A stretch of DNA of 64,000 nt from Candidatus Levyibacteriota bacterium (GCA_963716145.1 OY970292.1:822528-886527); one strand, 5' to 3'; numbered from the stretch's first letter, positions 1-60,544 are shown. Notes: generated by a model from the sequence alone, not told the origin. A program made the numbers and translations.

Positions 1-541
1 TATGGTCGGTAACAATGATATCCTGCGCGGTGCTAGGATATGATACAACAATTTGATAAGGGAGAAGATCTCCTATTGCTGCTTGGGAAGGTCCGGTTTT
101 GGTTATGGTCAGTTGCGGCGCATTTGGGTCGGCAGCAGCACTACTTGCCCCCATTATTATTAGAATAATAGCAATTATAAATATAACTATGAGAATCGCG
201 GCAATTACATAAGGGTTTCTTTTTGCAAGCTCAATTGCGCCTTTTGCAAGATTTTTAATGCCTTTTTTAAGGAGTTGGCTTGGGGAGAGGTTTTCCTGCA
301 TTTTTCTCAACCGGTTCATGGGGTTAAGATTTTGGGCCATATCCCTCGCTCTTTTTGCTGGGTTCGTTACATTCGAGATAGCCTTGCCTATTTTTGATTT
401 TCCCTGCTGGTCATGGCCGATTCTTTTGCGTTGTCCGGGATCAAGATTTTCTCCTTTTGCGTTTTTTTCCGTTTTTTCTCCTCCTGGAGGCGCAGATGTT
501 TCGGGCGCGTCTGTCTCAGCATCTAATAAATCTGTGGGCAT
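1..541 (-). CDS. partial CDS (N-terminal part; continues beyond position 1): membrane-anchored surface protein with DUF11-like conserved repeat
   Basis: ATG at 541-539 on minus strand; my translation is open to the window edge. Basic N-terminus, TM helix YVIAAILIVIFIIAIILIIM, then LTITKTGPSQAAIGDLLPYQIVV resembling the DUF11/TIGR01451 repeat. Absent from the ORF track because it runs off the window. Confidence 0.4.
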   Translation of the reverse strand, partial: MPTDLLDAETDAPETSAPPGGEKTEKNAKGENLDPGQRKRIGHDQQGKSKIGKAISNVTNPAKRARDMAQNLNPMNRLRKMQENLSPSQLLKKGIKNLAKGAIELAKRNPYVIAAILIVIFIIAIILIIMGASSAAADPNAPQLTITKTGPSQAAIGDLLPYQIVVSYPSTAQDIIVTDH

Positions 542-560
542 AATTTAATACTAACAAAAA

Positions 561-2708
561 TTAAGGTTTTGGCAAAACTGGGGTGGCGGGACTTGGTGAT
601 TGTACGGGTTCTTGCATAGCAGAACTGACTGGTGGTGTTACCGGAGGAGGTGTCTGTGGATTAGCTCCGCTTGGGGGGATTGGAGCGGAGGGTTCAGATG
701 TTGGCGCCACTGTGGGATCAGGCGTGGTAGCGCTGACTTGAGAAGGAGCGGAAGACGTTATTGTAGGTGCGTTCTGGCTAGGTAGAGTTTGGTTTATTGG
801 TGGAGAGGTTGACAACGCCGACGCCGGGGGCGTAAGGGTTGGTGCTGGCGGTGTGGTTATGAGTGGGGGTGCAATGGGCGCTACAGGTGCAGCGAGACTA
901 TCATTGAGTTTTGATTTTGCAATTGCTGCCTCTTTATCCTGCTGTCTTTTCATTAGTTCTGCCGGGTTTGAAGTAATTAGTTCATGCTCAAAAGGCGCTG
1001 CAAAGACTTTCATCGCCACATGGTTTTGTCCGGCAAAAAATAGTCCCTCCCCCACGTCAGATGATAGAAGCAGGGCTTTTTCCCCTTCTGAGAGATAAAA
1101 CGTGTTGGCAATCATATCCACTTCAGCTGTGCCTTGCTTTAGAAGAATCTGGATTGAGGAATTGGTCAGAACAGCTTTTCCATACTCATTTTTGAGAAAA
1201 TCCTCAACATCCTGAGTTGCGGTAGTCATTCCTAGATAATATTTTCTTGCCCGCTTTGCAAGTGAGTAGACAAAAGAGGCTGAGTCCTGATATTTCATCA
1301 TATACCATGCCTCATCAAGAATTAGAATCCTTTTTTTCAGATTCTTTTTTACCTTTGTCCAGACAAAATCAAGAATGATATGCATGGCAACAGCCCGGAG
1401 TTCTTCTTCAAGATTGCGGATTGAAAAAATAGTCAGCGGATTGTTAATCTCAAAATTTGACTGCTGATTGAAAATCCCAGCAGCTGATCCTTTAATGAAT
1501 TTTTCCAGCCGGTATGCTAGATCTTTCGCCGGCTGATTTTCCATGCCAAGGAGAGTTTTGTATAAGTCTTCCATAAGGGGAGGCTGTTTTCGTTGGGTTG
1601 CCGGATCAGTTGTGATTCCTTTTTGGCGGTAGCATTCAATAAGCGCACGATCCATAATCGCATCATGTTCAGCATCAAGATCACCTGTTATGAGCTTTAA
1701 AAGTCCATGGAGGGATAGAATTTTGAGACCCAGTTCGTTTTCTCCTTCTTCAAAAACATCAGATAAATCAAAAGGATTAATTTTTATCTCTGAGCTTGAT
1801 GAAAAATCCACCACCTCACCGCCAAGAGCCGGTGTCATAGTCTCGTACTCTCCCTCAGGGTCAATTACAATTACTTCAGCCCCAAGCATAAATTGGCGTG
1901 CAATCTCAAGTTTAATAGCATAAGATTTTCCAGCACCTGATTTTCCCAAGACTACTTCGTTGGCATTTTCAAGCGAGAAGCGATCAAAAATAATCAGCGA
2001 GCCGTTTTGTTGATTAACCCCATACATAACCCCTTTATTTTGCGTCAAAATGGCCGAAGTGAAAGGGAAGGTTGAGGCAAGCGATGAGGTATCCATATTG
2101 CGTGTAACATATAGCCTGTCAAGTCCGAGAGGCAGTGTTGACTTAAATCCTTCTTCCATTTGGAGAGTTGCCGTTTTTCCGGCAAGAAGAAGGGAGCCAA
2201 GAGTTGTCTGAAGCTCTTTAACTGTTTGTTGAAGCTCGGGTAGATCAAGCGCTGACACGGTGATATAAAATCCGAATTGGAAAAATCGTTCAATACCCTT
2301 TGCGAGCTCTTCCTGAAGTCCGAGGGCATCTTCAAGCGCTGCTTCAACCGTTGGGTCAGTAACTTTGCCGGCTTCCGCATCGGACGAAAGAGTTGCCTGC
2401 ATTTCTCCAATTTTACGCTTAAGATCTGTCAGAACGTCTTTGGATGATGTGGGATAGCAAAACATTGATATATCCAGAGTGTGATCATAATCAATAATCG
2501 GCTGAAGCCAACCTGGGGAGACATAGCGAGGATAGCCTGCGATAAAAAGGGTTGTGTAAAAAGAATCTCCGACTCGTATGTAGCGGAAATCAACCTCAAC
2601 TGATGAAGGAGCGATGATATCAATTATTGACGTTAATCCCTTTTCAACTGCCCCAATAGCCTTGCTTGACTGAGCAGTAACAGCAGGGACCTGTTTTTTT
2701 GCCCCCAA
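561..2708 (-). CDS. virB4: VirB4/TrbE-like type IV secretion ATPase with C-terminal Pro/Thr/Ser-rich low-complexity tail
   Basis: 715 aa; Walker A GKSGAGKS followed by IVIDPEGEY; overall VirB4/CagE-like order; about 110 aa P/T/S-rich tail. Track start is a TTG. An ATG at 2766 in another frame, joined through T7/T8 runs, would give MKLPFSKKTPANPAVAPTAVG... and abut the stop of the upstream gene. Confidence 0.75.
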   Translation of the reverse strand: MGAKKQVPAVTAQSSKAIGAVEKGLTSIIDIIAPSSVEVDFRYIRVGDSFYTTLFIAGYPRYVSPGWLQPIIDYDHTLDISMFCYPTSSKDVLTDLKRKIGEMQATLSSDAEAGKVTDPTVEAALEDALGLQEELAKGIERFFQFGFYITVSALDLPELQQTVKELQTTLGSLLLAGKTATLQMEEGFKSTLPLGLDRLYVTRNMDTSSLASTFPFTSAILTQNKGVMYGVNQQNGSLIIFDRFSLENANEVVLGKSGAGKSYAIKLEIARQFMLGAEVIVIDPEGEYETMTPALGGEVVDFSSSSEIKINPFDLSDVFEEGENELGLKILSLHGLLKLITGDLDAEHDAIMDRALIECYRQKGITTDPATQRKQPPLMEDLYKTLLGMENQPAKDLAYRLEKFIKGSAAGIFNQQSNFEINNPLTIFSIRNLEEELRAVAMHIILDFVWTKVKKNLKKRILILDEAWYMMKYQDSASFVYSLAKRARKYYLGMTTATQDVEDFLKNEYGKAVLTNSSIQILLKQGTAEVDMIANTFYLSEGEKALLLSSDVGEGLFFAGQNHVAMKVFAAPFEHELITSNPAELMKRQQDKEAAIAKSKLNDSLAAPVAPIAPPLITTPPAPTLTPPASALSTSPPINQTLPSQNAPTITSSAPSQVSATTPDPTVAPTSEPSAPIPPSGANPQTPPPVTPPVSSAMQEPVQSPSPATPVLPKP

Positions 2709-2762
2709 CAGCTGTAGGCGCTACGGCAGGGTTTGCGGGTGTTTTTTTTGAAAAGGGTAGCT

Positions 2763-3440
2763 TCATGTCTTGGGTCCTCCTGTTACAATCGATGCTCCTA
2801 CAGCCGGATCAATTTGCTCAACTTCAATATCTGCACCATTGTTATAAATGTCGTAAAAAAGTTTAATTAAATCTTCCCGTTCCAGCACCCTTGCCGATAC
2901 TGCAAACTTTTGTAGTTGACCAAGTACCGTTTCCGCTTTGGATTGCAGACTTTTCGCCGCACCTTCCGGCAGAGACTTGGTTTGAGCATTTGTTTTTTGT
3001 CCCTTTTGAGCCGTTTGCTTCACACCAACCATGCCCATCTCAAGTGAGGAGAATGGAATAACTATGTAAAACGACTTGTTTAGAACAACATTTACCGTTA
3101 CCATTTCCTGGACAAAATCACGGTAGTAGCCGATGTAGGTCTGTAGCTGCGGGTTTTTGCTGCTGGCAATTATTTCATCCAAGTCCTTTAAATACGAGGT
3201 AATATCAATTCTTTTATTCCTTATAAGTATTTGGATAGGGAAAGACAGCGAGTTGAGAAGAGAAGCATAAGAAAAAATTCTGCTGTCCTGCTCTCTTTTG
3301 GACAAAAGAGCAAAATTGCTTGCAGTTATTTCAATTATCAGACAAGCAGCTCCACCTTCCATAACGACCACATTTTCAACGAAATCAACAATCTCGGTGA
3401 ATTTTTGGGTTGACGCATGAATTTTTTGGGCAGCACTCAT
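2763..3440 (-). CDS. hypothetical protein, translationally coupled upstream partner of virB4
   Basis: 225 aa ORF, no recognisable motif; its stop at 2763 directly precedes the candidate virB4 ATG at 2766. Confidence 0.45.
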   Translation of the reverse strand: MSAAQKIHASTQKFTEIVDFVENVVVMEGGAACLIIEITASNFALLSKREQDSRIFSYASLLNSLSFPIQILIRNKRIDITSYLKDLDEIIASSKNPQLQTYIGYYRDFVQEMVTVNVVLNKSFYIVIPFSSLEMGMVGVKQTAQKGQKTNAQTKSLPEGAAKSLQSKAETVLGQLQKFAVSARVLEREDLIKLFYDIYNNGADIEVEQIDPAVGASIVTGGPKT

Positions 3441-3443
3441 AAT

Positions 3444-4757
3444 TTAACTAAATAAATCCTTTCGTAGCTCTTCACGTTTATCATAAGAAGTAATTTCAAT
3501 CGGCTGCATTATTTGATCATTTGCGGTAATTTGGATGGAATCAAACGTGTGCTGCTTTTTTAGATCCTCAAGCGTTATTGTATATGTGCCTGAAGCAAGC
3601 GGCGTAGCAGATGCAAAATTGCCAAGTGAGTTGGTTTTAAAGGCTCTTACCGGATTACCGCTTTTGTCTTTTATTTCAACCAGAATGTTGGGTAGGACGT
3701 TTCCTCTTGCATCCTTAACCATTCCCGAAACTACATTTGGTGTATCTGATGCAAAAATTCCAAGGCGTTTGTTCATGTCTGTTGGCACGCTTCTCACATG
3801 CGGAGTTTTCGTTTCAATAGGAGTTGTTTTTGCGACATCAGTTTTTGCAGCAGGTACTGCCGGAGTAGCCTGCTGGGTTGATAATTGTTTTTTTAAGTTC
3901 ATAATTTCCTGCTCAAGTAACTGTTTTTGGGAATGAATTTCCGCAACCTGTTTTTCCAGATCTTGCGCTTTCAGGGGAGCGTCCGGAAGAATACTCGGAG
4001 ACTGAAGAGTAGCCTCTTGATGCGTTGCGAACTCTAATTGTTTTTCTAAAGCAGCTTCTTTTTCAGAAAGAATTTCAGGCGATGGTTTTACGGCCGGGAC
4101 ATTTGCGATTGGTTTATCAGAGGGCTTTGGTGATGCATTTGGCAGATTTTTAGGTAAACCGGGAGGGGTGGCTGGAAGCGTTTGGCTTTGGGGAGTTGCG
4201 ACTGGAGATGCCAGAATAGAGCTAAGAAATGCCGCTTCCCGCGCGTCTTGTGGGTTTTTTATTTTACTCTCAGAACTATTAATTAAAATTTTTTGCAATT
4301 CCCTTCCTCTCTCGTTAATCATTTTTTGCTTTGGGGTACTATGCGCATCCTGTCCTGAGCTTGTCGAAGGATGCGGTTTGGAAAGAGATATTGTTGAAAA
4401 GCTGAATTTTTTATCCATCTTGTGGTATATGTATTGATTTGGAGAGAATAAAGCTTTCATAAAATTTCCTGCCATAATGTCAATAGGTCTACCGTCAACC
4501 GGAACAAAAGCCAGGATTGGTCCGCTTGCCCCAAAAAGAGGTATAAGGAGGATTTTTAAAAAGATAGCAAGAATTCCACCAGGTAAGGGCAGATAATAGA
4601 TTATCGCAGCTCCTATGACGCCTGCCGCAACATAGCCAAACTGCTTGACAGTCATCGAGCCTATAAGCTTAAACTGAAATCCTGTTACATTTTGTGGTAT
4701 TGGGTGTTGGTCCATTGCTGATACAAAAAGTGTATAACGTGAAAAATAGCATTGCAA
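3444..4757 (-). CDS. membrane protein: N-terminal TM hairpin, Pro-rich linker, coiled coil, C-terminal beta-sandwich-like domain (VirB10-like architecture only)
   Basis: 437 aa; TM segments at about residues 40-95; PATPPGLPKNLPNASPKPSDKP Pro-rich; heptad-like QLLEQEIMNLKKQL; C-terminal GNVLPNILVEIKDKSGNPV...GTYTITLED resembles carboxypeptidase-regulatory/Big-type fold. Confidence 0.45.
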   Translation of the reverse strand: MQCYFSRYTLFVSAMDQHPIPQNVTGFQFKLIGSMTVKQFGYVAAGVIGAAIIYYLPLPGGILAIFLKILLIPLFGASGPILAFVPVDGRPIDIMAGNFMKALFSPNQYIYHKMDKKFSFSTISLSKPHPSTSSGQDAHSTPKQKMINERGRELQKILINSSESKIKNPQDAREAAFLSSILASPVATPQSQTLPATPPGLPKNLPNASPKPSDKPIANVPAVKPSPEILSEKEAALEKQLEFATHQEATLQSPSILPDAPLKAQDLEKQVAEIHSQKQLLEQEIMNLKKQLSTQQATPAVPAAKTDVAKTTPIETKTPHVRSVPTDMNKRLGIFASDTPNVVSGMVKDARGNVLPNILVEIKDKSGNPVRAFKTNSLGNFASATPLASGTYTITLEDLKKQHTFDSIQITANDQIMQPIEITSYDKREELRKDLFS

Positions 4758-4816
4758 CTCCTACAAAGTAGGTCAAACGGAATACGTTGCGAGGCTGACT
4801 TGTGAAAAGTTGAGGA

Positions 4817-5143
4817 TTATTTGCAGCCGCCATTGTTAATGGCTTCAATATTCGTAATACAGTCTGAGGATTTGGTGATAAAGCCGATAAAGTACAAAAT
4901 GGCAAAAGAGGAAAGGACGGTAATAGCGCCGATTATTGCATAGTTCATGATCTTGCGGGCTGCTTCTACTTGCTTGGGATCACCACCTGATGTAACTAGT
5001 CTGATGCCGGAATAAATAATCAGAGAAAGAGCAACAACGCCGACAAATATCAGAAAAGCATTAACGACATTGTGAAAGACAACGGGAAGACAGCGAAGTG
5101 TCGCAACACCATTCTCAACGCAATTTCCCCAAGGTTGAAACAT
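4817..5143 (-). CDS. small two-TM hairpin protein, VirB2/TrbC-like putative T4SS pilin (paralog 1 of 3)
   Basis: 108 aa; two hydrophobic helices separated by loop TSGGDPKQVEAARKIMNYAIIGAI. Same motif as ORFs 50536..50982 and 50998..51321 (SGGDK..ARxxI..AI(I/V)GL). Confidence 0.45.
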   Translation of the reverse strand: MFQPWGNCVENGVATLRCLPVVFHNVVNAFLIFVGVVALSLIIYSGIRLVTSGGDPKQVEAARKIMNYAIIGAITVLSSFAILYFIGFITKSSDCITNIEAINNGGCK

Positions 5144-5187
5144 ATATAAAGATTAACAAATAGAAAGATAGAAAAGCAAGGCTTTGG

Positions 5188-7377: not shown

Positions 7378-7382
7378 AAAAA

Positions 7383-7922: not shown

Positions 7923-7953
7923 AAAATTAAGTTAAATAGTCAATTTACCAGCT

Positions 7954-10581: not shown

Positions 10582-10590
10582 TCTACTATG

Positions 10591-13847: not shown

Positions 13848-13886
13848 TATGCAACTTCAGAAAGATATAAATATTTTAGCAGAAAC

Positions 13887-19076: not shown

Positions 19077-19078
19077 AA

Positions 19079-26081: not shown

Positions 26082-26088
26082 CCTAAAG

Positions 26089-26111
26089 AACCCGAGAAAT
26101 CGGGTTTTTTT
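26089..26111 (+). terminator. rho-independent terminator after tuf
   Basis: aacccgagaaatcgggttttttt: 5-bp GC stem, GAAA loop, T7. Confidence 0.7.
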
Positions 26112-26620: not shown

Positions 26621-26642
26621 GTCGATAAGAATACGCAATAAT

Positions 26643-43779: not shown

Positions 43780-44970
43780 CTAGTGCCCCGGCTTAATTGA
43801 CATTGCAGCCCCAATAACTAAAGCCCCGGCAAGAGCTGCAAGAAGCGCGGCAAGGCCCAAAGGTGCACCTCCGACGATAGCACTGCCTTTGAGAGCCTTG
43901 AGAGTATTTGTTTTCCATCTTGCTCTTTCTTCAGCATCCATGCCTTTAGTCTGTTCCTCAAGCATTTTGTCAACAATACCGCTTAGATCGCCTTTACGGA
44001 CTGATTCCAATAAGGCTTGGGCTGCTTCTGAGTCAAACTCACCGTTTTGTATTTGGTCAAATAAGCCATCAAAAGGTGTTTCTCCTTTTGCTTCAGCTTC
44101 AGAAAATAGCTTATAGGCATTGCCCAAAACTGCTTGCTCAGCTTGTGCTGCTTCCAGCCTTTGTTGAGCTGTAGCATTATTGTTATCAATCTTTAATGTT
44201 GCTTCTAGATTCGCGATCTCGGCACTAAGCTTATCGGATTGTTGAGCAAACGCTTCTTTACTTCCGCCGAGAACCGTTACTGCTTCCTGAAAATCATCTT
44301 TTGTCAGGACAACTTTTCCATCCAAGTTTTCTAACAATTTTGTTGCTTGAGGTGAACGGGTTGTTTCGTCAGGAGAGATGGAGCTTATAAGAGATCTGAT
44401 ATCATCAGCTGTGGGGATGCGGTTCTTGGCAGCATTTTCTATCGCCGGATCAAGACTTTCATCCATATCCCGATTGCCCATACAAGCTTGGAATACCTGC
44501 TGACTGTCTTCGCCTACAAAAAGTTTTGCATATGTATTCAGCTCTGCCTGCATTTGAAGACCAAGGACCTCTTCTCTAGTATAGGCAAGTTTTAGGCGTG
44601 CATCGCCTTGTTCATCTTTACCTGCGCTATCCTCAAGCACCTCTCCATCCTTATCTTCAAAGTAACATAGCAGTTGACCATCAGGTGTAACACCTGCAAT
44701 ACCAGCTAAGCGGATTTCTCCTTCCGGAAATTCCTGGTCTTTGCCACCCCTATCTTGTCTTATGACTGCCGGCATCATTACGTCATGTCCATCGCCGGTT
44801 GCTTTGGGAAATTTTCTTGCAAATGGCTGATCGCCGTCATTCTCACCAGTAAGCAATGCGTGAGATATGGCAAGCGCAGATTCCTCAGCAGTTTTTGCGG
44901 ATTTAATCTCCCCTTTATCACCGATTAGCCTTTTGCGGTGTTCTGACATAAGAATCGACTTAACCAACAT
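43780..44970 (-). CDS. hypothetical tail-anchored protein (acidic, Ala/Glu/Gln-rich coiled-coil, C-terminal TM); may extend upstream to 45262 across poly-T/A indels
   Basis: 396 aa; C-terminus GSAIVGGAPLGLAALLAALAGALVIGAAMSI; upstream ORF 45056..45262 (MSAPGTAATETPGMNADELAAAKSFDAKKKGPKLKKKEKAKRKK) in another frame through T9/T10 runs; G+C visibly higher than flanks. Confidence 0.5.
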   Translation of the reverse strand: MLVKSILMSEHRKRLIGDKGEIKSAKTAEESALAISHALLTGENDGDQPFARKFPKATGDGHDVMMPAVIRQDRGGKDQEFPEGEIRLAGIAGVTPDGQLLCYFEDKDGEVLEDSAGKDEQGDARLKLAYTREEVLGLQMQAELNTYAKLFVGEDSQQVFQACMGNRDMDESLDPAIENAAKNRIPTADDIRSLISSISPDETTRSPQATKLLENLDGKVVLTKDDFQEAVTVLGGSKEAFAQQSDKLSAEIANLEATLKIDNNNATAQQRLEAAQAEQAVLGNAYKLFSEAEAKGETPFDGLFDQIQNGEFDSEAAQALLESVRKGDLSGIVDKMLEEQTKGMDAEERARWKTNTLKALKGSAIVGGAPLGLAALLAALAGALVIGAAMSIKPGH

Positions 44971-49699: not shown

Positions 49700-50524
49700 C
49701 TAATTTAAAATATAAAGATCCTGGTTATATCCGCCAACTGCCACAAATTCCGCTTCATGAGTGATAATGGCCTCAAAGGGAAGGCAGGCAAAGCAGCCGC
49801 CCTTTGGACAGATGTATTCTCCAGCAAGCCTTGCCTGTTTTACTCTTAAGGCAGTTTCCAGGACTGTTTGAAAAGCAAGATCTTTATCAGGTAGTTTCAT
49901 CTCAGTGGGTGTATCATCCCGGTCCAAATACCAATAGCTGGCTTTACTGACCAATCTGCTCTGGCAATTTTCAACCAGAAGTAAATAAATAGGAAGTTGG
50001 AGGGAATTGACCTTTTCATCATTTTTACCTGTTTTGAAATCGATTATGTGAAGAGTATTATCAGGCATATACTCAAGCCAGTCAATCTTACCGCAAAGTA
50101 TTATATTATCCGCTACAGATAAATAATAATTTGGCAGTTCTTTATTGATTTTAATAGCTTTTTGAATTAGTGGGCCAGGGTTATCAATAACCCGCTTTAA
50201 CATTTGTACGCCCCGTTCTTTTATTGCATGCTCTTCCTCTTTGTTCTTAAAACCTCCAAGTTTGCCGGTTACTTTTTCCCAAGATAAGTTATATTTATCA
50301 ACAAGCGGCTCTTTAAAGCGGTCCTCAACCCGTAGAGTAGATAATGCTTCAAGCACAACGTGCACTGTTTGTCCAAGAGCAAGCGAGGGATTTATGATAT
50401 TCACTTTGTGTCCCGTTTGCGGGTCTTTGTAAACATTTCTAAGGTAATAAAGCCTCGGACAAGAAAGAAAATCACTGATGGATGAGTTAGATACCCAGAC
50501 CGCGCTATATTTATCTTGGGGCAT
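49700..50524 (-). CDS. Cas4/RecB-like PD-(D/E)xK nuclease with Cys4 Fe-S motif (stand-alone)
   Basis: 274 aa; GKIDWLEY...HIIDFKTGK (D...D/ExK); one N-terminal Cys (DFLSCPRLYY) plus CPKGGCFAC at the C-terminus, as in Cas4/AddB Fe-S nucleases. Confidence 0.6.
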   Translation of the reverse strand: MPQDKYSAVWVSNSSISDFLSCPRLYYLRNVYKDPQTGHKVNIINPSLALGQTVHVVLEALSTLRVEDRFKEPLVDKYNLSWEKVTGKLGGFKNKEEEHAIKERGVQMLKRVIDNPGPLIQKAIKINKELPNYYLSVADNIILCGKIDWLEYMPDNTLHIIDFKTGKNDEKVNSLQLPIYLLLVENCQSRLVSKASYWYLDRDDTPTEMKLPDKDLAFQTVLETALRVKQARLAGEYICPKGGCFACLPFEAIITHEAEFVAVGGYNQDLYILN

Positions 50525-50535: not shown

Positions 50536-50982
50536 TTAACTGCCAAAAGTAGGTATTTTTAGGCTACGAATATCCCCTAGGCCAAATGCGCTTAGGACAA
50601 TTTGTACTATGAAGTAAGCAACAAAGGCGACAATGAGACCCACAATGGCTGCAACGATATGCTTTCTCGCTTCATCAACTTTTCCTTTGTCTCCACCGGA
50701 GGTTATCCATCTGATTCCACCATAAACTAGGTAAAAAAGAGCGATGATAACTGCCGCGATCAGAAGAAATGTTAATACAGTGCCTATGATGCCACCTGCT
50801 TTATCTGCTTTGAAGTTGTCGCAGAGTTTGAAAAAAGTTGAACTCCGAGGGCAGGGATCAAGATCTGTCTCTGCAAACGCAGGAAGAGCTGAGTAGGCGA
50901 AAGCACTAAGTCCTAATAATATTGCTGAAACCTTTTTCATAAGTACATATCTATGATAGAACAATGTTTTTCTGCTTGTCAA
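50536..50982 (-). CDS. VirB2/TrbC-like two-TM pilin-like protein (paralog 2)
   Basis: 148 aa; signal-like N-terminus; YGGIRWITSGGDKGKVDEARKHIVAAIVGLIVAFVAYFIV. Confidence 0.45.
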   Translation of the reverse strand: MTSRKTLFYHRYVLMKKVSAILLGLSAFAYSALPAFAETDLDPCPRSSTFFKLCDNFKADKAGGIIGTVLTFLLIAAVIIALFYLVYGGIRWITSGGDKGKVDEARKHIVAAIVGLIVAFVAYFIVQIVLSAFGLGDIRSLKIPTFGS

Positions 50983-50997: not shown

Positions 50998-51321
50998 TTA
51001 AGCAAAATTTAGAAGGTTTACCTTGAAGAAATAGCCAATAAGGCTAACAATGAAAAACGCAGCAAACGCGACAACAAGCCCAATTATTGCCCAGGTCAAT
51101 TTTGCACGAGCTGCTTGAAGCTTTGTTTTATCTCCGCCTGATAGAATCCATTGTATGCCGGCAACTACTATAAATATAAGCGCCAAAGCTACGCAGATTA
51201 TGATCATGATGATAAAGCTATTGCGGAAAACCTTACTTACTGTACCAATGCCTCCGGTTGGGATACCAGGAGGGGCAGAGATTGTTTGTCCGCCGGGAAG
51301 AGTTAATGCCAAATAGTTCAT
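50998..51321 (-). CDS. VirB2/TrbC-like two-TM pilin-like protein (paralog 3)
   Basis: 107 aa; AGIQWILSGGDKTKLQAARAKLTWAIIGLVVAFAAFFIV. Confidence 0.45.
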   Translation of the reverse strand: MNYLALTLPGGQTISAPPGIPTGGIGTVSKVFRNSFIIMIIICVALALIFIVVAGIQWILSGGDKTKLQAARAKLTWAIIGLVVAFAAFFIVSLIGYFFKVNLLNFA

Positions 51322-51495: not shown

Positions 51496-52929
51496 GTGGA
51501 GCAAGTTCATTTTGAATCGCTTTATCCTGATACAGCCTGGTCCTCAGAAATTGAAAAACTGGGAAGTTTTATAAAAGACGGTACATCCTGTCAATTATTG
51601 AGTATACCTGGTGCCGGAAGATCAACTATTTTGGGTCTTTTGGCGCATAACAGCAAAATACGTATAAAGCATTTCGGTAAGAATCAGGCTGCAATCCATT
51701 TTGTAGCTGTTAATTTTTCAGAGATTAAAAAACGTCCGCTTTTTGACGTGATGAAGTTTTTGTTTCTGTCTCTTGCCGACTCTCTTCGGGCGCGCAAAAT
51801 GGAGGAATATGAGAAGATTAATGATCTGTTCAAAGAATCTTTGGGATTTAATGATGAGCTTGTGCTTTTTCAGGCTCTAAAAGAAGCTATTGATTATCTT
51901 GCTCTTGAAAGAAAATTTAAGATTGTTTTTTTGTTTGATCGATTTGAGGAATATGTGCCCAAAGTAACCAGCGAGTTTTTTACCAATCTCAGAACTCTTA
52001 GGAATCGTGCCAAATATCAATTTTCAGTGATTTTTTCTCTCAACAGACCGCTTGAGGAGCTCTTGGAACAGGATCAGCTTTTCGACTTTTATGAATTTAT
52101 CGCAGGACATTACGTTTACTCAGGCCTATCTGATAAAGTCACAACAGATTTCCGCGTTGCATATATAGAAAAAATTACAGGAAAAAAAATTCTGCCAAAA
52201 ATACTTACCGGTATTCTAGAAGAGACAGGGGGAGTGGGAAGACTTATCAAGTTATCAGTTGAGACAGTCCTGGCGAATAATAAATTCGAAGCACGAAGCA
52301 CGAAATCCGAGACAAATATAAATAACAAAAATCCAAATACGAAAAATGTTTCGAGTTTCGACCTGCCTGCCGGCAAGGCAGGTATTCGGATTTCGGATTT
52401 GGGTTTGGGGGAATATCTTTTTTCACAAAAACCAATCCAAAGTGCTCTAATGGAGATTTGCCGCTCGCTTTTACCAGTTGAGCAGGCGGCACTTATTAAT
52501 AACAAATTTGATGACCCGCAAGCAGAAAGTTATCTTGAGACTGTTGCAATAATTAAAGCTAGGAAAATACAAATTCCTCTTTTTGAGAAACATATTAAAT
52601 CGCACGTTGGGAAATTTCAGCAAGATGCCAAAAAAATTGTATATGATCAAAACACAAACGCTATAAAAATGAACGAGGTTGTCTTATCTGATCAGCTGAC
52701 TTCGTCTGAGTTTAGACTGCTGAAATTTCTTCTGCAAAATCCTGACAGAATTGTTGATAGAGACGCGCTGATTGGCGTTGTATGGTCAAGCGTAAAATCA
52801 ACCGCCGGTATAACCGATCAGGCAGTTGACCAACTGGTTTTTAGAGTAAGACGGAAAATAGAAGACGACCCTAATAATCCCGTTCACCTGCTTACTGTTA
52901 AAGGGCGGGGATTTCGATTCGTTTCCTAA
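51496..52929 (+). CDS. regulator: N-terminal P-loop-like ATPase (Walker A Lys replaced by Arg) fused to C-terminal OmpR/PhoB-type winged-helix DNA-binding domain
   Basis: 477 aa; LSIPGAGRSTILGLL; IVFLFDRFEE (Walker B-like); C-terminal ...LTSSEFRLLKFLLQNPDRIVDRDALIGVVW...DQLVFRVRRKIEDDP...LLTVKGRGFRFVS matches the trans_reg_C pattern. Confidence 0.6.
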   Translation: MEQVHFESLYPDTAWSSEIEKLGSFIKDGTSCQLLSIPGAGRSTILGLLAHNSKIRIKHFGKNQAAIHFVAVNFSEIKKRPLFDVMKFLFLSLADSLRARKMEEYEKINDLFKESLGFNDELVLFQALKEAIDYLALERKFKIVFLFDRFEEYVPKVTSEFFTNLRTLRNRAKYQFSVIFSLNRPLEELLEQDQLFDFYEFIAGHYVYSGLSDKVTTDFRVAYIEKITGKKILPKILTGILEETGGVGRLIKLSVETVLANNKFEARSTKSETNINNKNPNTKNVSSFDLPAGKAGIRISDLGLGEYLFSQKPIQSALMEICRSLLPVEQAALINNKFDDPQAESYLETVAIIKARKIQIPLFEKHIKSHVGKFQQDAKKIVYDQNTNAIKMNEVVLSDQLTSSEFRLLKFLLQNPDRIVDRDALIGVVWSSVKSTAGITDQAVDQLVFRVRRKIEDDPNNPVHLLTVKGRGFRFVS

Positions 52930-52994: not shown

Positions 52995-55900
52995 ATGATA
53001 GAGCAAAAATTGACAGCCAGAGAGGCTTCCCGATATGATAGAAGAGGAGCAAAATATATGTCAGAAACAGGAGCAGCCGTATTGGAAAGATCGGAAGAAT
53101 CAGATGAAGAAAAACTGTATAAAAAATGGGAGCCTTTTTTGGCGCAAGCTACCAAGCCCGAAGAACGCGCCCACATACTTGATCTTATAACTCAACGTAG
53201 AGAACCACCCTCAGAAGATCCAAGTGAATTAACGCAGGCCAGATTGAGAGAAATGTCCCAGGATGAGGTTGATAAGAAATTTGCCGCCATGATCAAAAAG
53301 CCTGAGATTAACAGGCCTGAAGATTTAAAGGGGCTTGACAAGATACTGGATAAGTACCAGGAGCAGGCAAAGGGCGCAGACGGTCTATTGGGAGATGAGT
53401 CGGTAGCACCAGGGGAAGTCTTGCGGGATAAGGACAGCTGGGCAGAGTATGGATGGAGCGATACTGAGAAAATCAGAGTTGCTGGTGACCTAAAGACCAC
53501 CCTTGCGAGCTTAAAGCTTACCGATAAACAGGTAGATACTATGATGGAAATTTTTCTTTCCGAAGGTAAATTGCCTGAACATTTAACAAAAGGAAAAATA
53601 GAAGAGATATCAGCCAACATATGGGATGAATGGGAGAAAGACCCAAATATCAGACATGATTATAAAAATGAATTCGATATATTTGTAATGCAGAAGTTGG
53701 GAATTACGGAAAAGCAAATAAAGCATTTTATTTTGACTGATAAATTTGAACAGGATAATGATATGTATGTTGATTATAATTCTCCACGAAATATTGAGGC
53801 CCTTGCCTGGCAGATCATGCACACCCCCGGTAAAGGATACGCAGGGTGGGGTATTAAGGGCGAGCGTCCGCTTCTTGAGATGCGGATAGTAAAGAATGCT
53901 GATGGAACTGTTGACACAGACAAGAGCCGTTACCGTGTAAATACAGCAAATATGGTTGCTTGGGCACGTTACAGCATGTATACCGCCTATGATCTTGACC
54001 GTGAAACTCCTCACAATTTTTTTCAGGAAATTGCTTTAAAGAAAAGATACCCGCTTTCTCTTCAAGAGATGCTTCTTAATCCTGATCAGTATTTTGTTTC
54101 GGAAGACGGAGAGACAAAATATAAACAAATGCTGCTGGAGTGGTATAAGGAAGCGGCTGTTTTTACAACTGTCAGGGGCTGGGATGTTGCTTACCGTGGA
54201 GTAATAGGAGATAGCGAGGAGCTGATGAAGGTTTTTAGGGAAATGTATAACACCCAAAATTTACTGACCAGAGGAGCTCTTGGTTCCAACATACTTAATC
54301 TTATGACAACTATGCCATTGGATTTTCAGGGGACAAAAGACGGTCAATGGAATAGCGATAGTAAGATGGGGGCCGGTTGGATTGATATCTATAGAGCTTA
54401 CGACAGCATGACTGATTTTGATAACCTGCAAAAGATACTTGGCAAGGGCTCAAAATTTTTTACCCGCGCAGGTTTCTCGGAGGCGATAAAAGAAGTGGAA
54501 AAAGGCAAGATTACAGCAACAGGTATAACTAAGTCAAGAGTGTTTATGGGTCGTAAGGAGCTTGAGTTTTTTAAAAATGCATTTGATGACAAGGGGGAGA
54601 TTTCATCTGAGGCGAATAAGGTAAATTTTATAAAACTTATTAATATTTTCGGAACCAAGCAGCCTGGAGCCGGAGTTGAGTTTGCAGTGCGTTTTGCACT
54701 GCGCAATGCTATTGCTGAAAAATACGGGGAGGAAGTGTACGTTAAAAATGCAAAGGGTGAAATCATGAAGGATGAAAATGGAAAAAAGATAAAAACGCAT
54801 GCTTTTGTTACTACACAAGGGGAGAAAAAAGGCGACGAGATAGAAAACAGGATAGCAGATAATGAAAGTCTATATATAGCTGAGGCAATTGCCTGGTCGC
54901 TGGCCAGACCATTTGGCGCGGCCGCCAAAAATGATCCTGATTCCATAGCGCATGACTATATGGCCAAAATTTATAATACCCAGCTGCTGCGTGAGAAATA
55001 TCCTCATCGCGGAGACAAACTTGGTAATGAGCTGACAATGAATTTAATCAAGCGGACAGGTGTTGATATTCTTAACGCTGTAGTAACAGAAGCCCAGACA
55101 CCCGAGCTGGATTCAGAGGGAAAAGTAATTTATAAAACAAAAGACGATAGGGCAAACAACCGCCCGGTAATGCGTGACAAAACTCCAATGGAACTCTTTG
55201 TTGAGCTGTCTGAGTTCAGGACAATAGCAGCTAGTGAGATACGGTTAATGAGAGATAAGCTTATGGGAATGACCAGGGGAACAGAGGAATGGAAAAGGCA
55301 AAAGGATTTGGTAGATGCCTACGAACAGCAATCAGAGCAAAAATACCAGAATATAGCTTCCCAAATATCTATCAGACAAAGAGTGCTTTCGAACTATTAT
55401 GAAGATCATTTGAGGTATGCCTCTGACATATTTAAGCAGGTTATGAACGCGGATGAAATAGGATTTGATAAATTCACCGATTACAATGTCTTCGGAGGTG
55501 TGCGGTTCAAGCAGGCGGAATTTCAGAAAGAGGTGCAGGATACCTGGATTCATAAGATCCGTTACATGCTCGATACTTATTCGAGTCTTAACTTTAATCA
55601 GACTGTGCGTGTTTTGGATCAGAAAGAGACATCAAGACGGCATTGGGACGATCATCGTGAGTCTGAACCTGCTTTTCATGATGTTCCGCTGGGTGAGGCG
55701 CTTTTCGGGCACGAAATGCTCAATATACCAAAATTCTGGAAAAGAGACGATAAAGGGAGGCCGATAAATTTGAGAGATAATAAAGGCCGGAAGATGAAGG
55801 GACTCTACGAAATTGATTATTTGAAAGTACAGGAGAACAAACAGGATGTCTGGAAGCAATGGTTTATGATCAAAGTTGCCGCGGATTTACGCTCGCACAA

Positions 55901-56210
55901 AATGCTACACGGTAATGATGTCAGATATAATTTCACATATTATCAAAATGTTATTGAGTCACTGGGAAGAATACCGGGGAATATTTTGCAGGATGAATAT
56001 AAGATGAAGGATACAGTAGTAAACGAGCGTTTTTTCACAAAAGCCAATATTGCATGGCTGCGTGAAAAAGCAGGCGTAACGAATTTTAACCTTTATATGG
56101 GAGCAATACTTAAAGATCTGATTTTGGAAGAGGATAAGCCTGAGGAGGGAATAGGACTGCTTCTTGCCTTAAGTCTCGCGATGAAAGCAATTGTACGGGA
56201 TAAAGTTTAG
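52995..56210 (+). CDS. giant hypothetical soluble protein (1071 aa), Lys/Glu/Asp/Trp/Tyr-rich
   Basis: single uninterrupted ORF, no signal peptide or TM, no recognisable motif. Confidence 0.6.
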   Translation: MIEQKLTAREASRYDRRGAKYMSETGAAVLERSEESDEEKLYKKWEPFLAQATKPEERAHILDLITQRREPPSEDPSELTQARLREMSQDEVDKKFAAMIKKPEINRPEDLKGLDKILDKYQEQAKGADGLLGDESVAPGEVLRDKDSWAEYGWSDTEKIRVAGDLKTTLASLKLTDKQVDTMMEIFLSEGKLPEHLTKGKIEEISANIWDEWEKDPNIRHDYKNEFDIFVMQKLGITEKQIKHFILTDKFEQDNDMYVDYNSPRNIEALAWQIMHTPGKGYAGWGIKGERPLLEMRIVKNADGTVDTDKSRYRVNTANMVAWARYSMYTAYDLDRETPHNFFQEIALKKRYPLSLQEMLLNPDQYFVSEDGETKYKQMLLEWYKEAAVFTTVRGWDVAYRGVIGDSEELMKVFREMYNTQNLLTRGALGSNILNLMTTMPLDFQGTKDGQWNSDSKMGAGWIDIYRAYDSMTDFDNLQKILGKGSKFFTRAGFSEAIKEVEKGKITATGITKSRVFMGRKELEFFKNAFDDKGEISSEANKVNFIKLINIFGTKQPGAGVEFAVRFALRNAIAEKYGEEVYVKNAKGEIMKDENGKKIKTHAFVTTQGEKKGDEIENRIADNESLYIAEAIAWSLARPFGAAAKNDPDSIAHDYMAKIYNTQLLREKYPHRGDKLGNELTMNLIKRTGVDILNAVVTEAQTPELDSEGKVIYKTKDDRANNRPVMRDKTPMELFVELSEFRTIAASEIRLMRDKLMGMTRGTEEWKRQKDLVDAYEQQSEQKYQNIASQISIRQRVLSNYYEDHLRYASDIFKQVMNADEIGFDKFTDYNVFGGVRFKQAEFQKEVQDTWIHKIRYMLDTYSSLNFNQTVRVLDQKETSRRHWDDHRESEPAFHDVPLGEALFGHEMLNIPKFWKRDDKGRPINLRDNKGRKMKGLYEIDYLKVQENKQDVWKQWFMIKVAADLRSHKMLHGNDVRYNFTYYQNVIESLGRIPGNILQDEYKMKDTVVNERFFTKANIAWLREKAGVTNFNLYMGAILKDLILEEDKPEEGIGLLLALSLAMKAIVRDKV

Positions 56211-56215: not shown

Positions 56216-58084
56216 CTATGATTTGGGTTTTGCGCCATTTTTATTTCTTCGTCTTTGCCTAAAGGGTACTCTTTCACCTCTTTCTTTCCGAATTGCTTCC
56301 CTTTCCGCCTCAATGGTTTTTTCGAATCCGCCCTCCCCATGTACTGTTCCTTGTCTCTCAATAAGTCTTCTTGATGCCAGACCTCTCTCAGCCATAGAAC
56401 CGAGAATAGGCACGCGGGATCCGGCTCCGATTATCTTTTCACCGGTTTTACGTTTCAAAACAGCAAGAGCTCCCTTGTCACCGCTTCTCGCGTCATATCT
56501 ATTTAGATGCTTCATTGCACGCCCCACCGGTGCGCCAACTACCGCAGCTCCAGCGGCAATTCCAGCTCCAACAATTCCCGGAGTGCCGATATTTTTGACA
56601 CCCATTTTCTCACGTAGAATGGTCTGGATAGTCGGGGCAATCAGAAGCACTCCAAATGCCATAAGCGCTCCGAAATTGGTGCTTGATGGATTTCCCACAA
56701 GGGGAGGTACGAATTGATTGGGAGATGCCGTACTATATATATCCAAAAGCAAACGCGCGGCAATTAAAAGAAACACTGTTAGAGGAAAAATGGCAATATT
56801 GACAAAAAGCCTTCTGATCCAGCTTTCAAAACCCATAGGTTTGGTTGGAAGCAGCCCAAAAACAATAATAATAGGCGCCAATATTACATAGGCCAGAGTA
56901 TAGATATATGCTTTAAGGAGATTAAACCAGATTTTGAATAGATTTATAACCAAAATTACGAAAATGATAATTTGCGCGACAGCGCTGACGAGAACAGCAA
57001 GGAAATTGGCAACGCCTTTTTTGGCGCATTTTATGGGATGATACCACTTGCATTTTGTTTCCAGATCATTTTCATCAAACATCAAACTTCTTGCTACATT
57101 GCCGATAGTGTTTCCCGCGCTGTCGGCAACTGATTTGGTCATGACATGAAATCCGCCGTCGCGATCATTACCTTCACCAATAGATAAAAATCCTGTTTCC
57201 TCGCTGCACCTGGCAAAAATTTGATTAAAATAAGTAATAGGAGTCTGAAGAATTGTGCTGGTTGCTTTTTCTGAAAGCTTTTCCGGCCCGGCAGTTTTAT
57301 CTGTACAGTTGCCTACATCCGGGTCATGAGTGGCAGTAAGTAAGTAGGATCCTGCATAAGTAGTCACCCACATCAGGTCAATAAGCATAGCCGAAATCGC
57401 GTAAGAGAGAGTAATAAGTATTATCGAAACTATTACTTTGGGAATTTGATTCTGAATAGTCATGACTGTCCTGGGGTCAATTTTTATCCTTAGCATGATA
57501 CCAACGCCAATAAATACAAACGCAAGAGTCAGAAGAACATAGGCGATATTGCGCACAGTTTCCCAGAGTCCGATAATCGGCTGGAGGCCGCACAATCCGT
57601 AGCCTGATTTAGCAGGATCACAAGGCGCTACCGCGGCATAAGCTTTGGGGACAATGCCGAATTTATCTGAGATATACCGCGTATACGTTCCTGTTGATGC
57701 AATCGGCTGATAGGTTGAGGTGATCAGACCGGTTGAAATACCCACAAGTCCCCCAATTTCCGGCTTGCCATACTCATCGAGTACAGGTTTACTCATCCCT
57801 AGTCTTTTGGTCTCAGGATTGATGCCAAGACAGCCTTGAGTCGGGTTGATCGGATCAACCCCGATTAGTAGACAATGTATAGCTGATAAAACTTCAATTG
57901 TTGTTGACTGGGCAAAAGTGTGTTGATTGAGGGGAACATCCGGATCCATATTTGGAGCCGCGAAAGAATTGGTTGTCGTAGTAGCCGAAGTGGGGGATAT
58001 TTGAGCAAATGAGGGCTTGGAAGCCATAAATAACAACCCAACAATAACAAATAACAAACAGAATAAAACGCGGACAGAGCGCAT
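56216..58084 (-). CDS. VirB6/TrbL-like polytopic membrane protein with signal peptide and long basic C-terminal tail
   Basis: 622 aa; MRSVRVLFCLLFVIVGLLFMASKPSFA signal; about 8 TM helices in the middle; hydrophilic Arg/Lys/Gly-rich C-terminal 110 aa. Confidence 0.4.
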   Translation of the reverse strand: MRSVRVLFCLLFVIVGLLFMASKPSFAQISPTSATTTTNSFAAPNMDPDVPLNQHTFAQSTTIEVLSAIHCLLIGVDPINPTQGCLGINPETKRLGMSKPVLDEYGKPEIGGLVGISTGLITSTYQPIASTGTYTRYISDKFGIVPKAYAAVAPCDPAKSGYGLCGLQPIIGLWETVRNIAYVLLTLAFVFIGVGIMLRIKIDPRTVMTIQNQIPKVIVSIILITLSYAISAMLIDLMWVTTYAGSYLLTATHDPDVGNCTDKTAGPEKLSEKATSTILQTPITYFNQIFARCSEETGFLSIGEGNDRDGGFHVMTKSVADSAGNTIGNVARSLMFDENDLETKCKWYHPIKCAKKGVANFLAVLVSAVAQIIIFVILVINLFKIWFNLLKAYIYTLAYVILAPIIIVFGLLPTKPMGFESWIRRLFVNIAIFPLTVFLLIAARLLLDIYSTASPNQFVPPLVGNPSSTNFGALMAFGVLLIAPTIQTILREKMGVKNIGTPGIVGAGIAAGAAVVGAPVGRAMKHLNRYDARSGDKGALAVLKRKTGEKIIGAGSRVPILGSMAERGLASRRLIERQGTVHGEGGFEKTIEAEREAIRKERGERVPFRQRRRNKNGAKPKS

Positions 58085-59816: not shown

Positions 59817-60392
59817 TTACCGGCTTGTCTTTTCAAGAGGAAAGTTTTTTGAGAGCCAATCTCCTGATTTTTCCGTAAAAGTGGGCTTAACATATTCACG
59901 GTAAGGAAGGTACGGTAGAAGAATTGGTTTTATCTCCTCAGCCGTAATATCTCCAAGTGAAATCTTTAATTCTCCGGGAAAATAACTCTTGGTAGTCAAA
60001 TACAATACATCTTTATCATGATGTTTTATAAAGAAAAAATCATACAATTCTTCCCAGATAAAAAAATAATCTTCAACCCGTATGCCCTCCGTCGTAATTT
60101 TGTAGTAAAAATCATGAGGTGGGACAATTGATAAAGCAAACCACAGAAAAACCAATGAGAATATAGCACCCATTAAAAAAAAGTCTTTAGATGCAATATA
60201 AACTATGATTTCAAGTGCTGCCATTATCAGGAATCCGTTGAAAAAATACTCACGTGAGTGTTCTTTGAAAGGCCTACCGGGGGCGTGCCATTCTAAAAAA
60301 GTTCTGACATCATGTGTAAAGGCCGGGTTTTGTTCTCTTTCTTCTGGTTTTGGCTTATGTTTTGGGGTAGTCACACTTTTAATGTAACTCAT
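59817..60392 (-). CDS. membrane protein with two TM helices and a bacterial PH (bPH_2/DUF304)-like C-terminal domain
   Basis: start moved to ATG 60392 (MSYIKSV...) because the track ORF (to 60542) would overlap tRNA-Ser(TGA). Confidence 0.4.
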   Translation of the reverse strand: MSYIKSVTTPKHKPKPEEREQNPAFTHDVRTFLEWHAPGRPFKEHSREYFFNGFLIMAALEIIVYIASKDFFLMGAIFSLVFLWFALSIVPPHDFYYKITTEGIRVEDYFFIWEELYDFFFIKHHDKDVLYLTTKSYFPGELKISLGDITAEEIKPILLPYLPYREYVKPTFTEKSGDWLSKNFPLEKTSR

Positions 60393-60435
60393 TTTCAAGA
60401 CAAAAGTCAAGAAATTTGCTATACTTGAGCCTCCT

Positions 60436-60522
60436 GGAGAGGTCGCATAGTGGTCTAGTGCGGATGTCTTGAAAACATCTGTGGGCGCAAGTCTACCGCG
60501 AGTTCGAATCTCGCCCTCTCCG
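60436..60522 (+). tRNA. tRNA-Ser (anticodon TGA), type II
   Basis: acceptor GGAGAGG/CCTCTCC, anticodon arm GATGT-CTTGAAA-ACATC, long variable arm, T-arm GCGAG-TTCGAAT-CTCGC, discriminator G. Confidence 0.85.
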
Positions 60523-60544
60523 CAACGTAAGAAATCTACCAAAT

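Follow-up and report, generated by a model that had tools for sequence, protein, structure and literature searches.

Composition of the core operon

Does the tight group of four genes at positions 561 to 5,143 of a 64,000-nt stretch from a Candidatus Levyibacteriota bacterium (GCA_963716145.1 OY970292.1:822528-886527; the whole stretch is referred to as the window) encode a type IV secretion system (T4SS), and if so, of which kind? An open reading frame (ORF) scan places all four genes on the minus strand and in the same direction, at 5143..4817 (108 aa), 4757..3444 (437 aa), 3440..2763 (225 aa) and 2708..561 (715 aa). Judged by sequence, their order reads VirB2, VirB3, TrsD, VirB4. We conclude that the region is very probably the core operon of a chromosomal, relaxase-less Patescibacteria T4SS, found here in Candidatus Levyibacteriota (Microgenomatia). 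Its features are:

4817..5143, minus: VirB2-like T4SS pilin, 108 aa (PF18895)
3444..4715, minus: extended VirB3/PrgI, 423 aa (PrgI, CarboxypepD_reg, homologue starts, AlphaFold, Foldseek)
2763..3440, minus: TrsD/TraC-like protein, 225 aa (VirB4_plasma, TrsD/TraD, PF26593)
561..2766, minus: VirB4 ATPase; in-frame ORF 2708..561, 715 aa (conju_CD1110, P-loop_TraG, AAA_10, DUF87, PDB 4AG5)
564-914, minus: Pro/Thr/Ser/Ala-rich VirB4 tail, residues ~599-715 (composition)

The pilin-PrgI spacer measures 101 nt and the PrgI-TrsD spacer 3 nt, while the stop of TrsD and an ATG share bases in ATGA (2766-2763). After the VirB4 stop, the next ATG (541) comes at a distance of 19 nt; it starts a downstream gene that runs past the window end. 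These genes are not chance calls, because NCBIfam and Pfam scores exceed the respective cut-offs: conju_CD1110 with 383.9 bits (cut-off 325), T4SS_pilin with 34.1 (26.6) and PrgI with 28.4 (27). A first-pass annotation of the window had described four co-directional, tightly packed genes, forming a T4SS-like module around VirB4 with a VirB2-like pilin. All four lie exactly where it had placed them, and the module is borne out by the VirB4 and T4SS_pilin hidden Markov model (HMM) matches as well as by PDB 4AG5; in the HMM check it had proposed, both a curated VirB4 model (conju_CD1110) and Pfam T4SS_pilin exceed their cut-offs.

A search limited to the 64-kb window found no relaxase, coupling protein or integrase domain in the ORFs scanned. 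VirB5, B7, B8, B9, B10 and B11 were likewise not detected, VirB7/9/10 giving no Pfam or NCBIfam match in the window ORFs scanned. Promoter and terminator scans of window positions 1-5600 returned counts equal to the shuffled expectation (11 vs 9.8 and 6 vs 6.6, respectively), and the RNA fold of the pilin-PrgI spacer indicated no structure (z = 0.30).

For comparison, 43 related loci (denoted by L numbers) were obtained by a VirB4 scan with one genome per species, and the window proteins were compared with them by tblastn. Candidatus Levyibacteriota is the name on the closest loci; several further taxon names in the related-locus records are evidently bin mislabels. PrgI, TrsD and VirB4 sit side by side in practically all of the related loci.

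VirB4 and its detached N-terminal domain

The conju_CD1110 match (NCBIfam NF045971) covers only profile positions 186-734 of 752. Pfam matches to P-loop_TraG (89.7 vs 25.8), AAA_10 and DUF87 were also obtained, and residues 221-580 match the VirB4 C-terminal domain of PDB 4AG5/4AG6 (E=2.1e-47). The GKSGAGKS motif, already noted in the first-pass annotation, is present as Walker A at residues 255-262, with Walker B (ILILDE) at 461. The score against TIGR00929 VirB4_CagE is 118 bits, far under the 643 cut-off. Against the 894-position NF045975 model, VirB4 covers positions 293-893. A complete N-terminal domain is thereby absent from the VirB4 polypeptide, the missing part being encoded separately as TrsD. 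This separation does not exclude VirB4 membership, as it is the known pGO1-type split.

TrsD residues 16-156 match positions 109-261 of 894 of NCBIfam VirB4_plasma (E=6e-8). Because TrsD (109-261) and VirB4 (293-893) tile one full-length VirB4 profile, NF045975, without overlap, TrsD is read as the missing part of VirB4. Similarity to the TrsD/TraD family itself is distant (E=2.9e-4), the 20.7 bits lying far under the NCBIfam TrsD cut-off of 200. Among 30 TrsD homologues from related loci, all match the VirB4_plasma N-terminal region and 28 match TrsD; PF26593 TraC-like is the precomputed Pfam label found on homologues. A PDB search with the TrsD profile gave no match. The trsD gene adjoins virB4 in all 43 related loci holding the region. 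Assembly error splitting a single gene into TrsD and VirB4 was considered and rejected, given a separate TrsD ORF in all independently assembled relatives. By sequence, the 225-aa protein is TrsD, homologous to the N-terminal domain of VirB4 but encoded on its own. The first-pass annotation had listed it as a coupled partner of the ATPase; the gene is there, its nature as a VirB4 N-domain homologue having gone unrecognised. Among the T4SS components of Patescibacteria, TrsD is reportedly the most abundant (PMC12102498).

The C-terminal 110 residues of VirB4 (606-715) consist of 57% Pro/Thr/Ser. Among the related loci with a complete virB4 3' end, 36 of 38 have such a tail, ranging from 23 to 166 aa (median 65), with the ~117 aa of the window at the long end. 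Median Pro+Thr+Ser content is 0.49 and the sequences are essentially unalignable. The same estimate finds no tail in L033 and L041, and VirB4 of L044, the most distant relative (unscored by the anchor), ends by eye right after the ATPase domain. Comparison of the sequences indicates that the tail is a clade-wide, hypervariable feature and no peculiarity of this genome. It is thus as real as the first-pass annotation had stated, and not unusual as it had proposed. In the closest relatives the tails (window 561-620; L001, L002, L018, L040) close with PVLPKP, PVLPKV, PVLPEA, SVLPES or ALPEA, giving a terminus xLP(K/E)x. This conserved end peptide hints at a candidate C-terminal docking motif following a disordered linker.

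An extended VirB3/PrgI protein

The second gene encodes 437 aa if TTG 4757 is used as the start; homologues start with MDQHPIPQ, which corresponds to ATG 4715 and a protein of 423 aa. Residues 19-111 match Pfam PrgI (E=2.4e-6, 28.4 bits vs 27), and residues 343-415 match Pfam CarboxypepD_reg (E=7e-9). More than 1000 homologues were found; of the best 120, almost every one is full-length and contains both domains. In an AlphaFold model from 49 sequences, the PrgI domain (residues 1-110) has transmembrane (TM) helices at 23-41 and 47-70 and a further helix at 78-90. After this domain come a Pro-rich linker, helices spanning 128-169 and another Pro-rich linker, then a coiled coil (213-282) and, past one more linker, a C-terminal transthyretin-like β-sandwich (307-412). 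Both Pro-rich linkers are low-confidence in the model and the β-sandwich is confident. Foldseek searches of the PDB relate the sandwich to carboxypeptidase regulatory, CnaB and transthyretin domains. A PDB search with the PrgI N-terminal profile gave no match.

Canonical VirB3 is a 10-15 kDa protein with short cytoplasmic ends, whereas the window protein, with its C-terminal extension of 310 aa, reaches 423 aa. The extension is placed on the cytoplasmic face because of the canonical VirB3 topology (PMC12857230) and the lack of a third TM segment; by this analogy, both the VirB3 extension and the VirB4 tail are most likely cytoplasmic.

The TM, Pro-rich, coiled-coil and beta-domain parts that the first-pass annotation had described are all present in the AlphaFold model. 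Its interpretation of the whole as VirB10-like does not stand: the N-terminus is PrgI and the C-terminus CarboxypepD_reg, TrbI/VirB10 (PF03743) gave no match at E<=0.1, and Foldseek places no VirB10 among the model's 50 best PDB matches. Pfam and fold searches together rule out a VirB10 identity, and sequence and model both assign the protein as an extended VirB3/PrgI variant.

With respect to translation starts, ATG 4751 has an AGGAG upstream at good spacing and lies in a frame other than that of the PrgI gene, while the conserved start, ATG 4715, has no obvious Shine-Dalgarno sequence. The mismatch may be chance or a further small indel in the spacer.

VirB2-like pilins

The first gene of the operon matches PF18895 T4SS_pilin (E=2.9e-8, 34.1 bits vs 26.6) and, under the cut-off, the NCBIfam Mbov_0395 pilin-like model (E=8e-5). 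It encodes two hydrophobic helices joined by the loop SGGDPKQVEAARK, with Cys pairs in the N- and C-terminal segments, and contains the motif SGGDPKQVEAARKI that had been noted previously; two hydrophobic helices, a short charged loop and an HMM match are thus found together, as expected of the pilin family. An ortholog occupies the same position in at least 40 relatives.

Three PF18895 pilin genes occur in the window, and in relatives these form a tandem array. In most relatives the 148-aa pilin gene is the immediate upstream neighbour of the ortholog of the 108-aa pilin. By eye, a signal-peptide-like N-terminus is present in the 148-aa pilin and not in the 108-aa or 107-aa pilins. Paralogues are 25-31% identical to each other and orthologs 55-64%, and on these sequence identities the three are regarded as ancient paralogues. 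The two further copies are located far from the core operon, together with other genes linked or tentatively linked to it:

43780..44970, minus: acidic tail-anchored protein, 396 aa
45317..48472, plus: protein with a Gly-rich TM pair, 1051 aa
48479..48832, plus: 117-aa protein
50536..50982, minus: second VirB2-like pilin paralogue, 148 aa (T4SS_pilin E=8.5e-10; Mbov_0395 E=1.3e-7)
50998..51321, minus: third VirB2-like pilin paralogue, 107 aa (T4SS_pilin E=1.1e-8; synteny)
51496..52929, plus: candidate regulator, 477 aa (Pfam Trans_reg_C E=2.7e-17; NCBIfam response-regulator C-terminal domains)
52995..56210, plus: conserved soluble protein, 1071 aa (adjoins the VirB6-like gene in relatives)
56216..58084, minus: VirB6-like polytopic membrane protein, 622 aa

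A probable divergent VirB6 and a split cluster

The 622-aa protein has an N-terminal segment and at least 6 TM regions by hydrophobicity scan, and its AlphaFold model (pLDDT, the model confidence score, 74) is helical. The window copy matches no Pfam or NCBIfam family, including PF04610 TrbL/VirB6, and a PDB search with the family profile gave no match. Among its homologues, 17 of 38 match PF04610 (best E=4.1e-7), and the six best Foldseek matches of the model are TrwI/VirB6 chains, albeit weak (E 0.1-0.6). Assignment as a divergent VirB6 has good support from sequence and model because the homologue TrbL/VirB6 matches, the Foldseek results and the synteny agree. This is the gene that the first-pass annotation had called VirB6-like and far from the core, and the two remote pilin paralogues it had listed are likewise recovered by Pfam T4SS_pilin.

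In most of the 43 loci the 622-aa gene, the 1071-aa gene (on the opposite strand), the 477-aa regulator gene, three pilin genes, PrgI, TrsD and VirB4 are contiguous. The same upstream genes are at 50.5-58.1 kb in the window, whose cluster consists of two parts ~39 kb apart. In the window and its nearest relatives (L001, L002/L004, L040, L045, L003), DUF2298 and glycosyltransferase genes are found directly upstream of the 108-aa pilin gene. The split is read as a lineage-specific rearrangement of an ancestrally single cluster, because the distant genes adjoin the core operon in most relatives; the same synteny agrees with the earlier proposal that the apparatus is divided across the window.

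The 477-aa protein has a P-loop-like region at its N-terminus and a winged-helix DNA-binding domain of OmpR/PhoB type. Its gene is divergent from the pilin genes and is kept between the 1071-aa gene and the pilins in at least 20 relatives. Repeated ATTTTCA/TGAAAAT units are found in the divergent spacer between regulator and pilin (51322-51495), with AATCTTCAATC at the matching place in relatives; a conserved promoter-like TTGCTT-N17-TAC(G/T)(C/G)T ends ~8 nt before the pilin ATG. From their sequence and position, the repeats are a candidate for an operator of the regulator.

The 1071-aa protein has no TM segment and no Pfam, NCBIfam, PHROG or PDB match. A deep profile search revealed 254 representatives at 50% clustering, some of up to 1890 aa, and no known domain was found among 30 sampled members. 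The 396-aa, 1051-aa and 117-aa genes (43780-48832) have a higher G+C content, and their products match no family. In L025 and L028, blastp and tblastn show the order pilins, 117-like (-), ~980-aa (-), ~450-aa (+), PrgI, with the same relative orientation; this gene order tentatively suggests that the genes at 43.8-48.8 kb are also linked to the T4SS cluster. Paralogy of the 1051-aa and 1071-aa proteins was considered and dropped, as no similarity between them was found. A PHROGs scan of eight cluster-linked proteins yielded nothing meaningful.

The 5' end of virB4

In relatives, virB4 begins at an ATG or GTG overlapping the TrsD stop, and the protein starts with MKLPFxKK. The window keeps this start at ATG 2766, with GGAGG 8 bases upstream and the sequence MKLPFSKK; that frame closes after 39 codons. 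Three-frame translation shows that the VirB4 frame opens only past a stop at 2723-2721 and has TTG 2708 as its sole in-frame start, for which no obvious ribosome-binding site is present. The first-pass claim that the stop of the partner gene abuts the ATPase start is half right: the TrsD stop does overlap an ATG, and that ATG is out of the VirB4 frame. Alignment locates the break as follows:

2694..2700, minus: A7 homopolymer in which one extra A breaks the frame between ATG 2766 and the VirB4 body (alignment with L001, L002, L045)

Deleting one A of A7 (2700-2694) restores ..GGKKQVPAV.., as in relatives, and L001, L002 and L045 read ..KKQ.. in frame. Only ~24 poorly conserved N-terminal codons are touched by the break. 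Over 8243 nt the Logan contig L003 matches the window without gaps at 99.976% identity and has the same A7; it may derive from the same reads.

Elsewhere in the window, at 24895-30800, the reading frames of indispensable genes are interrupted, leaving overlapping ORFs in differing frames. The tuf gene is in at least three pieces (24895-25032, 25017-25760, 25672-25974) and rplB in three (28737-28991, 28873-29244, 29216-29488), with rpsJ, rpsS, rplV and rpsC likewise split; the breaks are not limited to long homopolymers. This looks like a concentration of assembly indel errors. Because tuf, rplB and other indispensable genes are also fragmented, the frame break in virB4 is most likely an assembly indel as well.

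Comparison with known systems

Patescibacteria T4SS have been catalogued from 2,474 virB4 genes and related to the Gram-positive MPF-FATA conjugation machines (Quinonero-Coronel et al. 2025, PMC12102498). The window shares with them VirB4, TrsD, PrgI/VirB3, a VirB2-like pilin array and VirB6. Both are without VirB7/9/10 and without a nearby relaxase or coupling protein, and both are chromosomal. Closeness to dnaA/dnaN, typical of Microgenomatia, is probable for the window from its relatives L001 and L002, the window itself ending before that point. The system has already been described in Patescibacteria, and the window adds no new machine.

There are differences from the survey in detail. Only 22.6% of Microgenomatia VirB3 homologues were linked to virB4 and VirB6 was scarce in Microgenomatia, with extreme divergence suspected (PMC12102498). 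By comparison, nearly all Levybacteria loci studied here have a PrgI-type gene directly upstream of trsD-virB4, a divergent VirB6-like protein is recognisable by fold, and the window cluster is in two parts. A keyword search of PMC12102498 found no mention of a long VirB3 extension or a Pro/Thr-rich VirB4 tail. The additions made here are modest: the extended VirB3, the clade-wide VirB4 tail, a fold-level Levybacteria VirB6, synteny-defined accessory genes and the cluster split of a sub-lineage.

Among characterised systems, the sequence-derived layout is closest to the TrsC-TrsD-TrsE modules of pGO1/pIP501 type, with VirB2-like pilins added. The MPF-FATA modules of pGO1/pSK41/pIP501 (TrsC-TrsD-TrsE, TraC-TraD-TraE) have the same order of a two-TM VirB3-like protein, TrsD/TraD and VirB4, and in the pGO1 type TrsD is also a separate protein homologous to the VirB4 N-terminus. 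The window TrsD is a distant relative of the MPF-FATA TrsD and, at 20.7 vs 200 bits, not a family member by the NCBIfam model. MPF-FATA modules are plasmid-borne, with relaxase and coupling protein and without VirB2-type pilins, which the window system has in addition. Their VirB3 is of 10-15 kDa (PrgI 117 aa; PMC12857230), as opposed to 423 aa here.

Similarity to the Mycoplasma integrative conjugative element (ICE) is also evident, with the three window pilins matching Mbov_0395 (E 8e-5 to 1e-7) and TrsD plus VirB4 tiling Mbov_0397; all window scores are under the cut-offs of these models. The Mycoplasma VirB4 is a single 894-position protein on a mobile element, whereas here it is split into TrsD and VirB4. 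Compared with the diderm VirB/Trw systems (Agrobacterium VirB, R388 Trw), the window is without VirB5 and B7-B11, its VirB4_CagE score is 118 vs 643 bits, and the organism is monoderm.

Proposed function and alternative readings

In characterised systems VirB3 pairs 1:1 with the N-terminal domain of VirB4 at the membrane, VirB4 provides the power to extract and assemble pilins, and VirB6 forms the translocon (PMC12857230). By analogy, VirB3 and TrsD would dock VirB4 hexamers at the membrane beside the VirB6-like translocon, the VirB3 partner presumably being TrsD, which would stand in for the VirB4 N-terminal domain. ATP hydrolysis by VirB4 would extract pilins from the membrane and build a pilus or conduit through the monoderm envelope. 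This conduit may serve host-cell interaction rather than conjugation. The VirB3 extension, with its coiled coil and transthyretin-like domain, and the disordered VirB4 tail are clade-specific additions, most likely on the cytoplasmic face. The operon continues leftward past the window with the DUF11 surface protein and candidate cell-wall hydrolases. The remainder of the machine would be encoded at 43.8-58.1 kb, comprising two pilins, the winged-helix regulator, the VirB6-like channel protein and conserved proteins without family match.

The T4SS of Southlakia epibionticum, SEML1_0006-0019, is essential for epibiotic growth by transposon sequencing (Tn-seq) (Wang et al. 2023, PMC10633639). It is thought to be non-conjugative, as relaxase and coupling proteins are missing (PMC10633639). 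Essentiality applies to the one species tested and the role has been called completely unknown; effector export and import of host material have both been considered for Patescibacteria T4SS (PMC11665869).

Several points count against our interpretation. The search for coupling protein and relaxase covered only the 64-kb window. No HMM directly matches the 622-aa protein of the window, and the Foldseek E-values of that protein are weak. The 5' end of virB4 is out of frame with its coupled start, ATG 2766. Placement of the VirB3 extension in the cytoplasm relies on canonical topology and the absent third TM segment. Finally, the function is drawn only from homology and from Tn-seq of a different class (Saccharimonadia).

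The best surviving alternative is an importer similar to ComB or Ced, taking up DNA or other macromolecules from the host as a supply for a cell that cannot make its own nucleotides. The T4SS has been proposed as a route of nucleotide acquisition, the competence machinery being dispensable in S. epibionticum (PMC11665869). NCBIfam models also reveal a weak VirB4-level similarity to archaeal CedB (E=3e-12) and CedD (1e-6), far under the cut-offs; this similarity is of the generic P-loop/VirB4-fold kind. A PD-(D/E)XK nuclease gene (49700..50524) comes after the pilin pair of the window, but is outside the conserved cluster in relatives. The sequence gives no sign of transport direction. We consider import unlikely, if still a serious candidate.

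It is more doubtful that the Levybacteria T4SS possesses a clade-specific cytoplasmic superstructure, made up of the VirB3 extension and the VirB4 tail, that replaces the coupling protein as a platform for substrate recruitment, with the 1071-aa, 1051-aa and 396-aa proteins as new structural components or dedicated substrates.

A conjugative origin, with the genes as the mating-pair-formation module by which an integrated conjugative element or a plasmid remnant transfers DNA to other cells, would account for the closest characterised relatives being conjugation proteins of Gram-positive plasmids and ICEs (CD1110, TrsD/TraD, Mbov_0395/0397). It could also draw on the tRNA genes flanking the VirB6-like gene and on the G+C content of 0.43-0.46 in T4SS-linked stretches, compared with 0.35-0.37 in the neighbouring glycosyltransferase genes, although Pro/Thr/Ala-rich coding can account for the latter difference. 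What marks an ICE, namely relaxase, coupling protein and integrase, was not found within the window, and the flanks are housekeeping genes kept in relatives, the same chromosomal context with dnaN/dnaA recurring across many Levybacteria. In the Patescibacteria survey relaxases are rare, with no more than 103 genomes containing one, and the VirB4 clade of Patescibacteria shows inheritance within classes (PMC12102498). We regard this origin as highly improbable.

Slightly less credible still is decay of the system, with a real and inactivating frame break in virB4 and erosion as the cause of the split cluster. The out-of-frame ATG 2766 with its GGAGG, the TTG 2708 lacking an obvious ribosome-binding site and the identical sequence in the second assembly, L003, would fit; as set out above, however, few and poorly conserved codons are affected, L003 may share reads with the window and the breaks in tuf and rplB point to assembly indels. 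In addition, apart from the break all four proteins are complete in length and strongly conserved, VirB4 being 95-97% identical to that of L001 and L045 and TrsD 85-94% identical. The first-pass version, a diderm-style T4SS with the 437-aa protein as VirB10-like envelope-spanning scaffold, has practically nothing left to recommend it: the succession of TM, Pro-rich region and C-terminal beta domain resembles VirB10 only superficially, since the N-terminus is PrgI/VirB3 above the Pfam threshold, the beta domain, of ~100 residues, is a small sandwich of transthyretin type, the gene order VirB2-VirB3-(TrsD)-VirB4 fits VirB3, and monoderm T4SSs are without VirB7/9/10 (PMC12102498).

Surroundings of the cluster

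The gene directly following virB4 is incomplete in the window:

1..541 (cut by the window end), minus: 5' part of a TM-anchored DUF11/CLIPPER surface protein (L003, relatives)

The full gene is found in L003 at 7703-8920 and encodes 405 aa (Pfam DUF11 E=2.6e-8); a CLIPPER/DUF11 gene follows virB4 in relatives. By eye, its C-terminal CESGYDPNA...GLFQM is lytic-transglycosylase-like, with no HMM match. Past the left end of the window, L003 (7703-11443) encodes the 405-aa protein and then proteins of 183, 255 (weak Peptidase_M74), 202 and 165 aa. These post-virB4 genes may supply a VirB1-like wall-opening function. In relatives, virB4 is followed downstream by the DUF11/CLIPPER protein, small proteins and peptidase-like proteins (M23, weak M74), then dnaN and dnaA. 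The latter two are 5-8 kb past virB4 in L001 and L002, while L003 extends 3.2 kb without reaching them. A rising cumulative GC skew in the window is compatible with a position near dnaA/dnaN, and Microgenomatia T4SS are likewise reported near dnaA/dnaN and the replication origin (PMC12102498).

On the other side, an envelope glycosylation block (5188-15587) directly adjoins the pilin gene and comprises DUF2298, a HAD-like protein, 3-4 PMT_2-type glycosyltransferases and a NAD-dependent epimerase; it is syntenic in the closest relatives, L001 and L002. Beyond it, a 182-aa protein (19696-20244) has a weak Pfam PilN match (E=3e-4), just under the gathering score, and the small ORFs nearby (18762-19692) may encode proteins for the assembly of type IV pili. 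At 58150-60523 there is a cluster of five tRNA genes, Ser-GGA, Arg-CCG, Ser-CGA, Arg-GCG and Ser-TGA, the first directly upstream of the VirB6-like gene, and an Rfam scan of the whole window detected these five tRNAs only. The ORF 59817..60542 overlaps tRNA-Ser-TGA, which implies that its 5' part is non-coding.

Implications

The locus provides a clean Levybacteria example of the Patescibacteria T4SS, in which the VirB3 component is a large multidomain protein with more than 1000 homologues. It also offers a fold-level VirB6 candidate for a class in which VirB6 was scarce by sequence search, and synteny ties a regulator and several uncharacterised proteins to the T4SS. The extended VirB3, the VirB6 candidate and the linked genes are concrete targets for structural and genetic study of host exploitation by ultrasmall bacteria.

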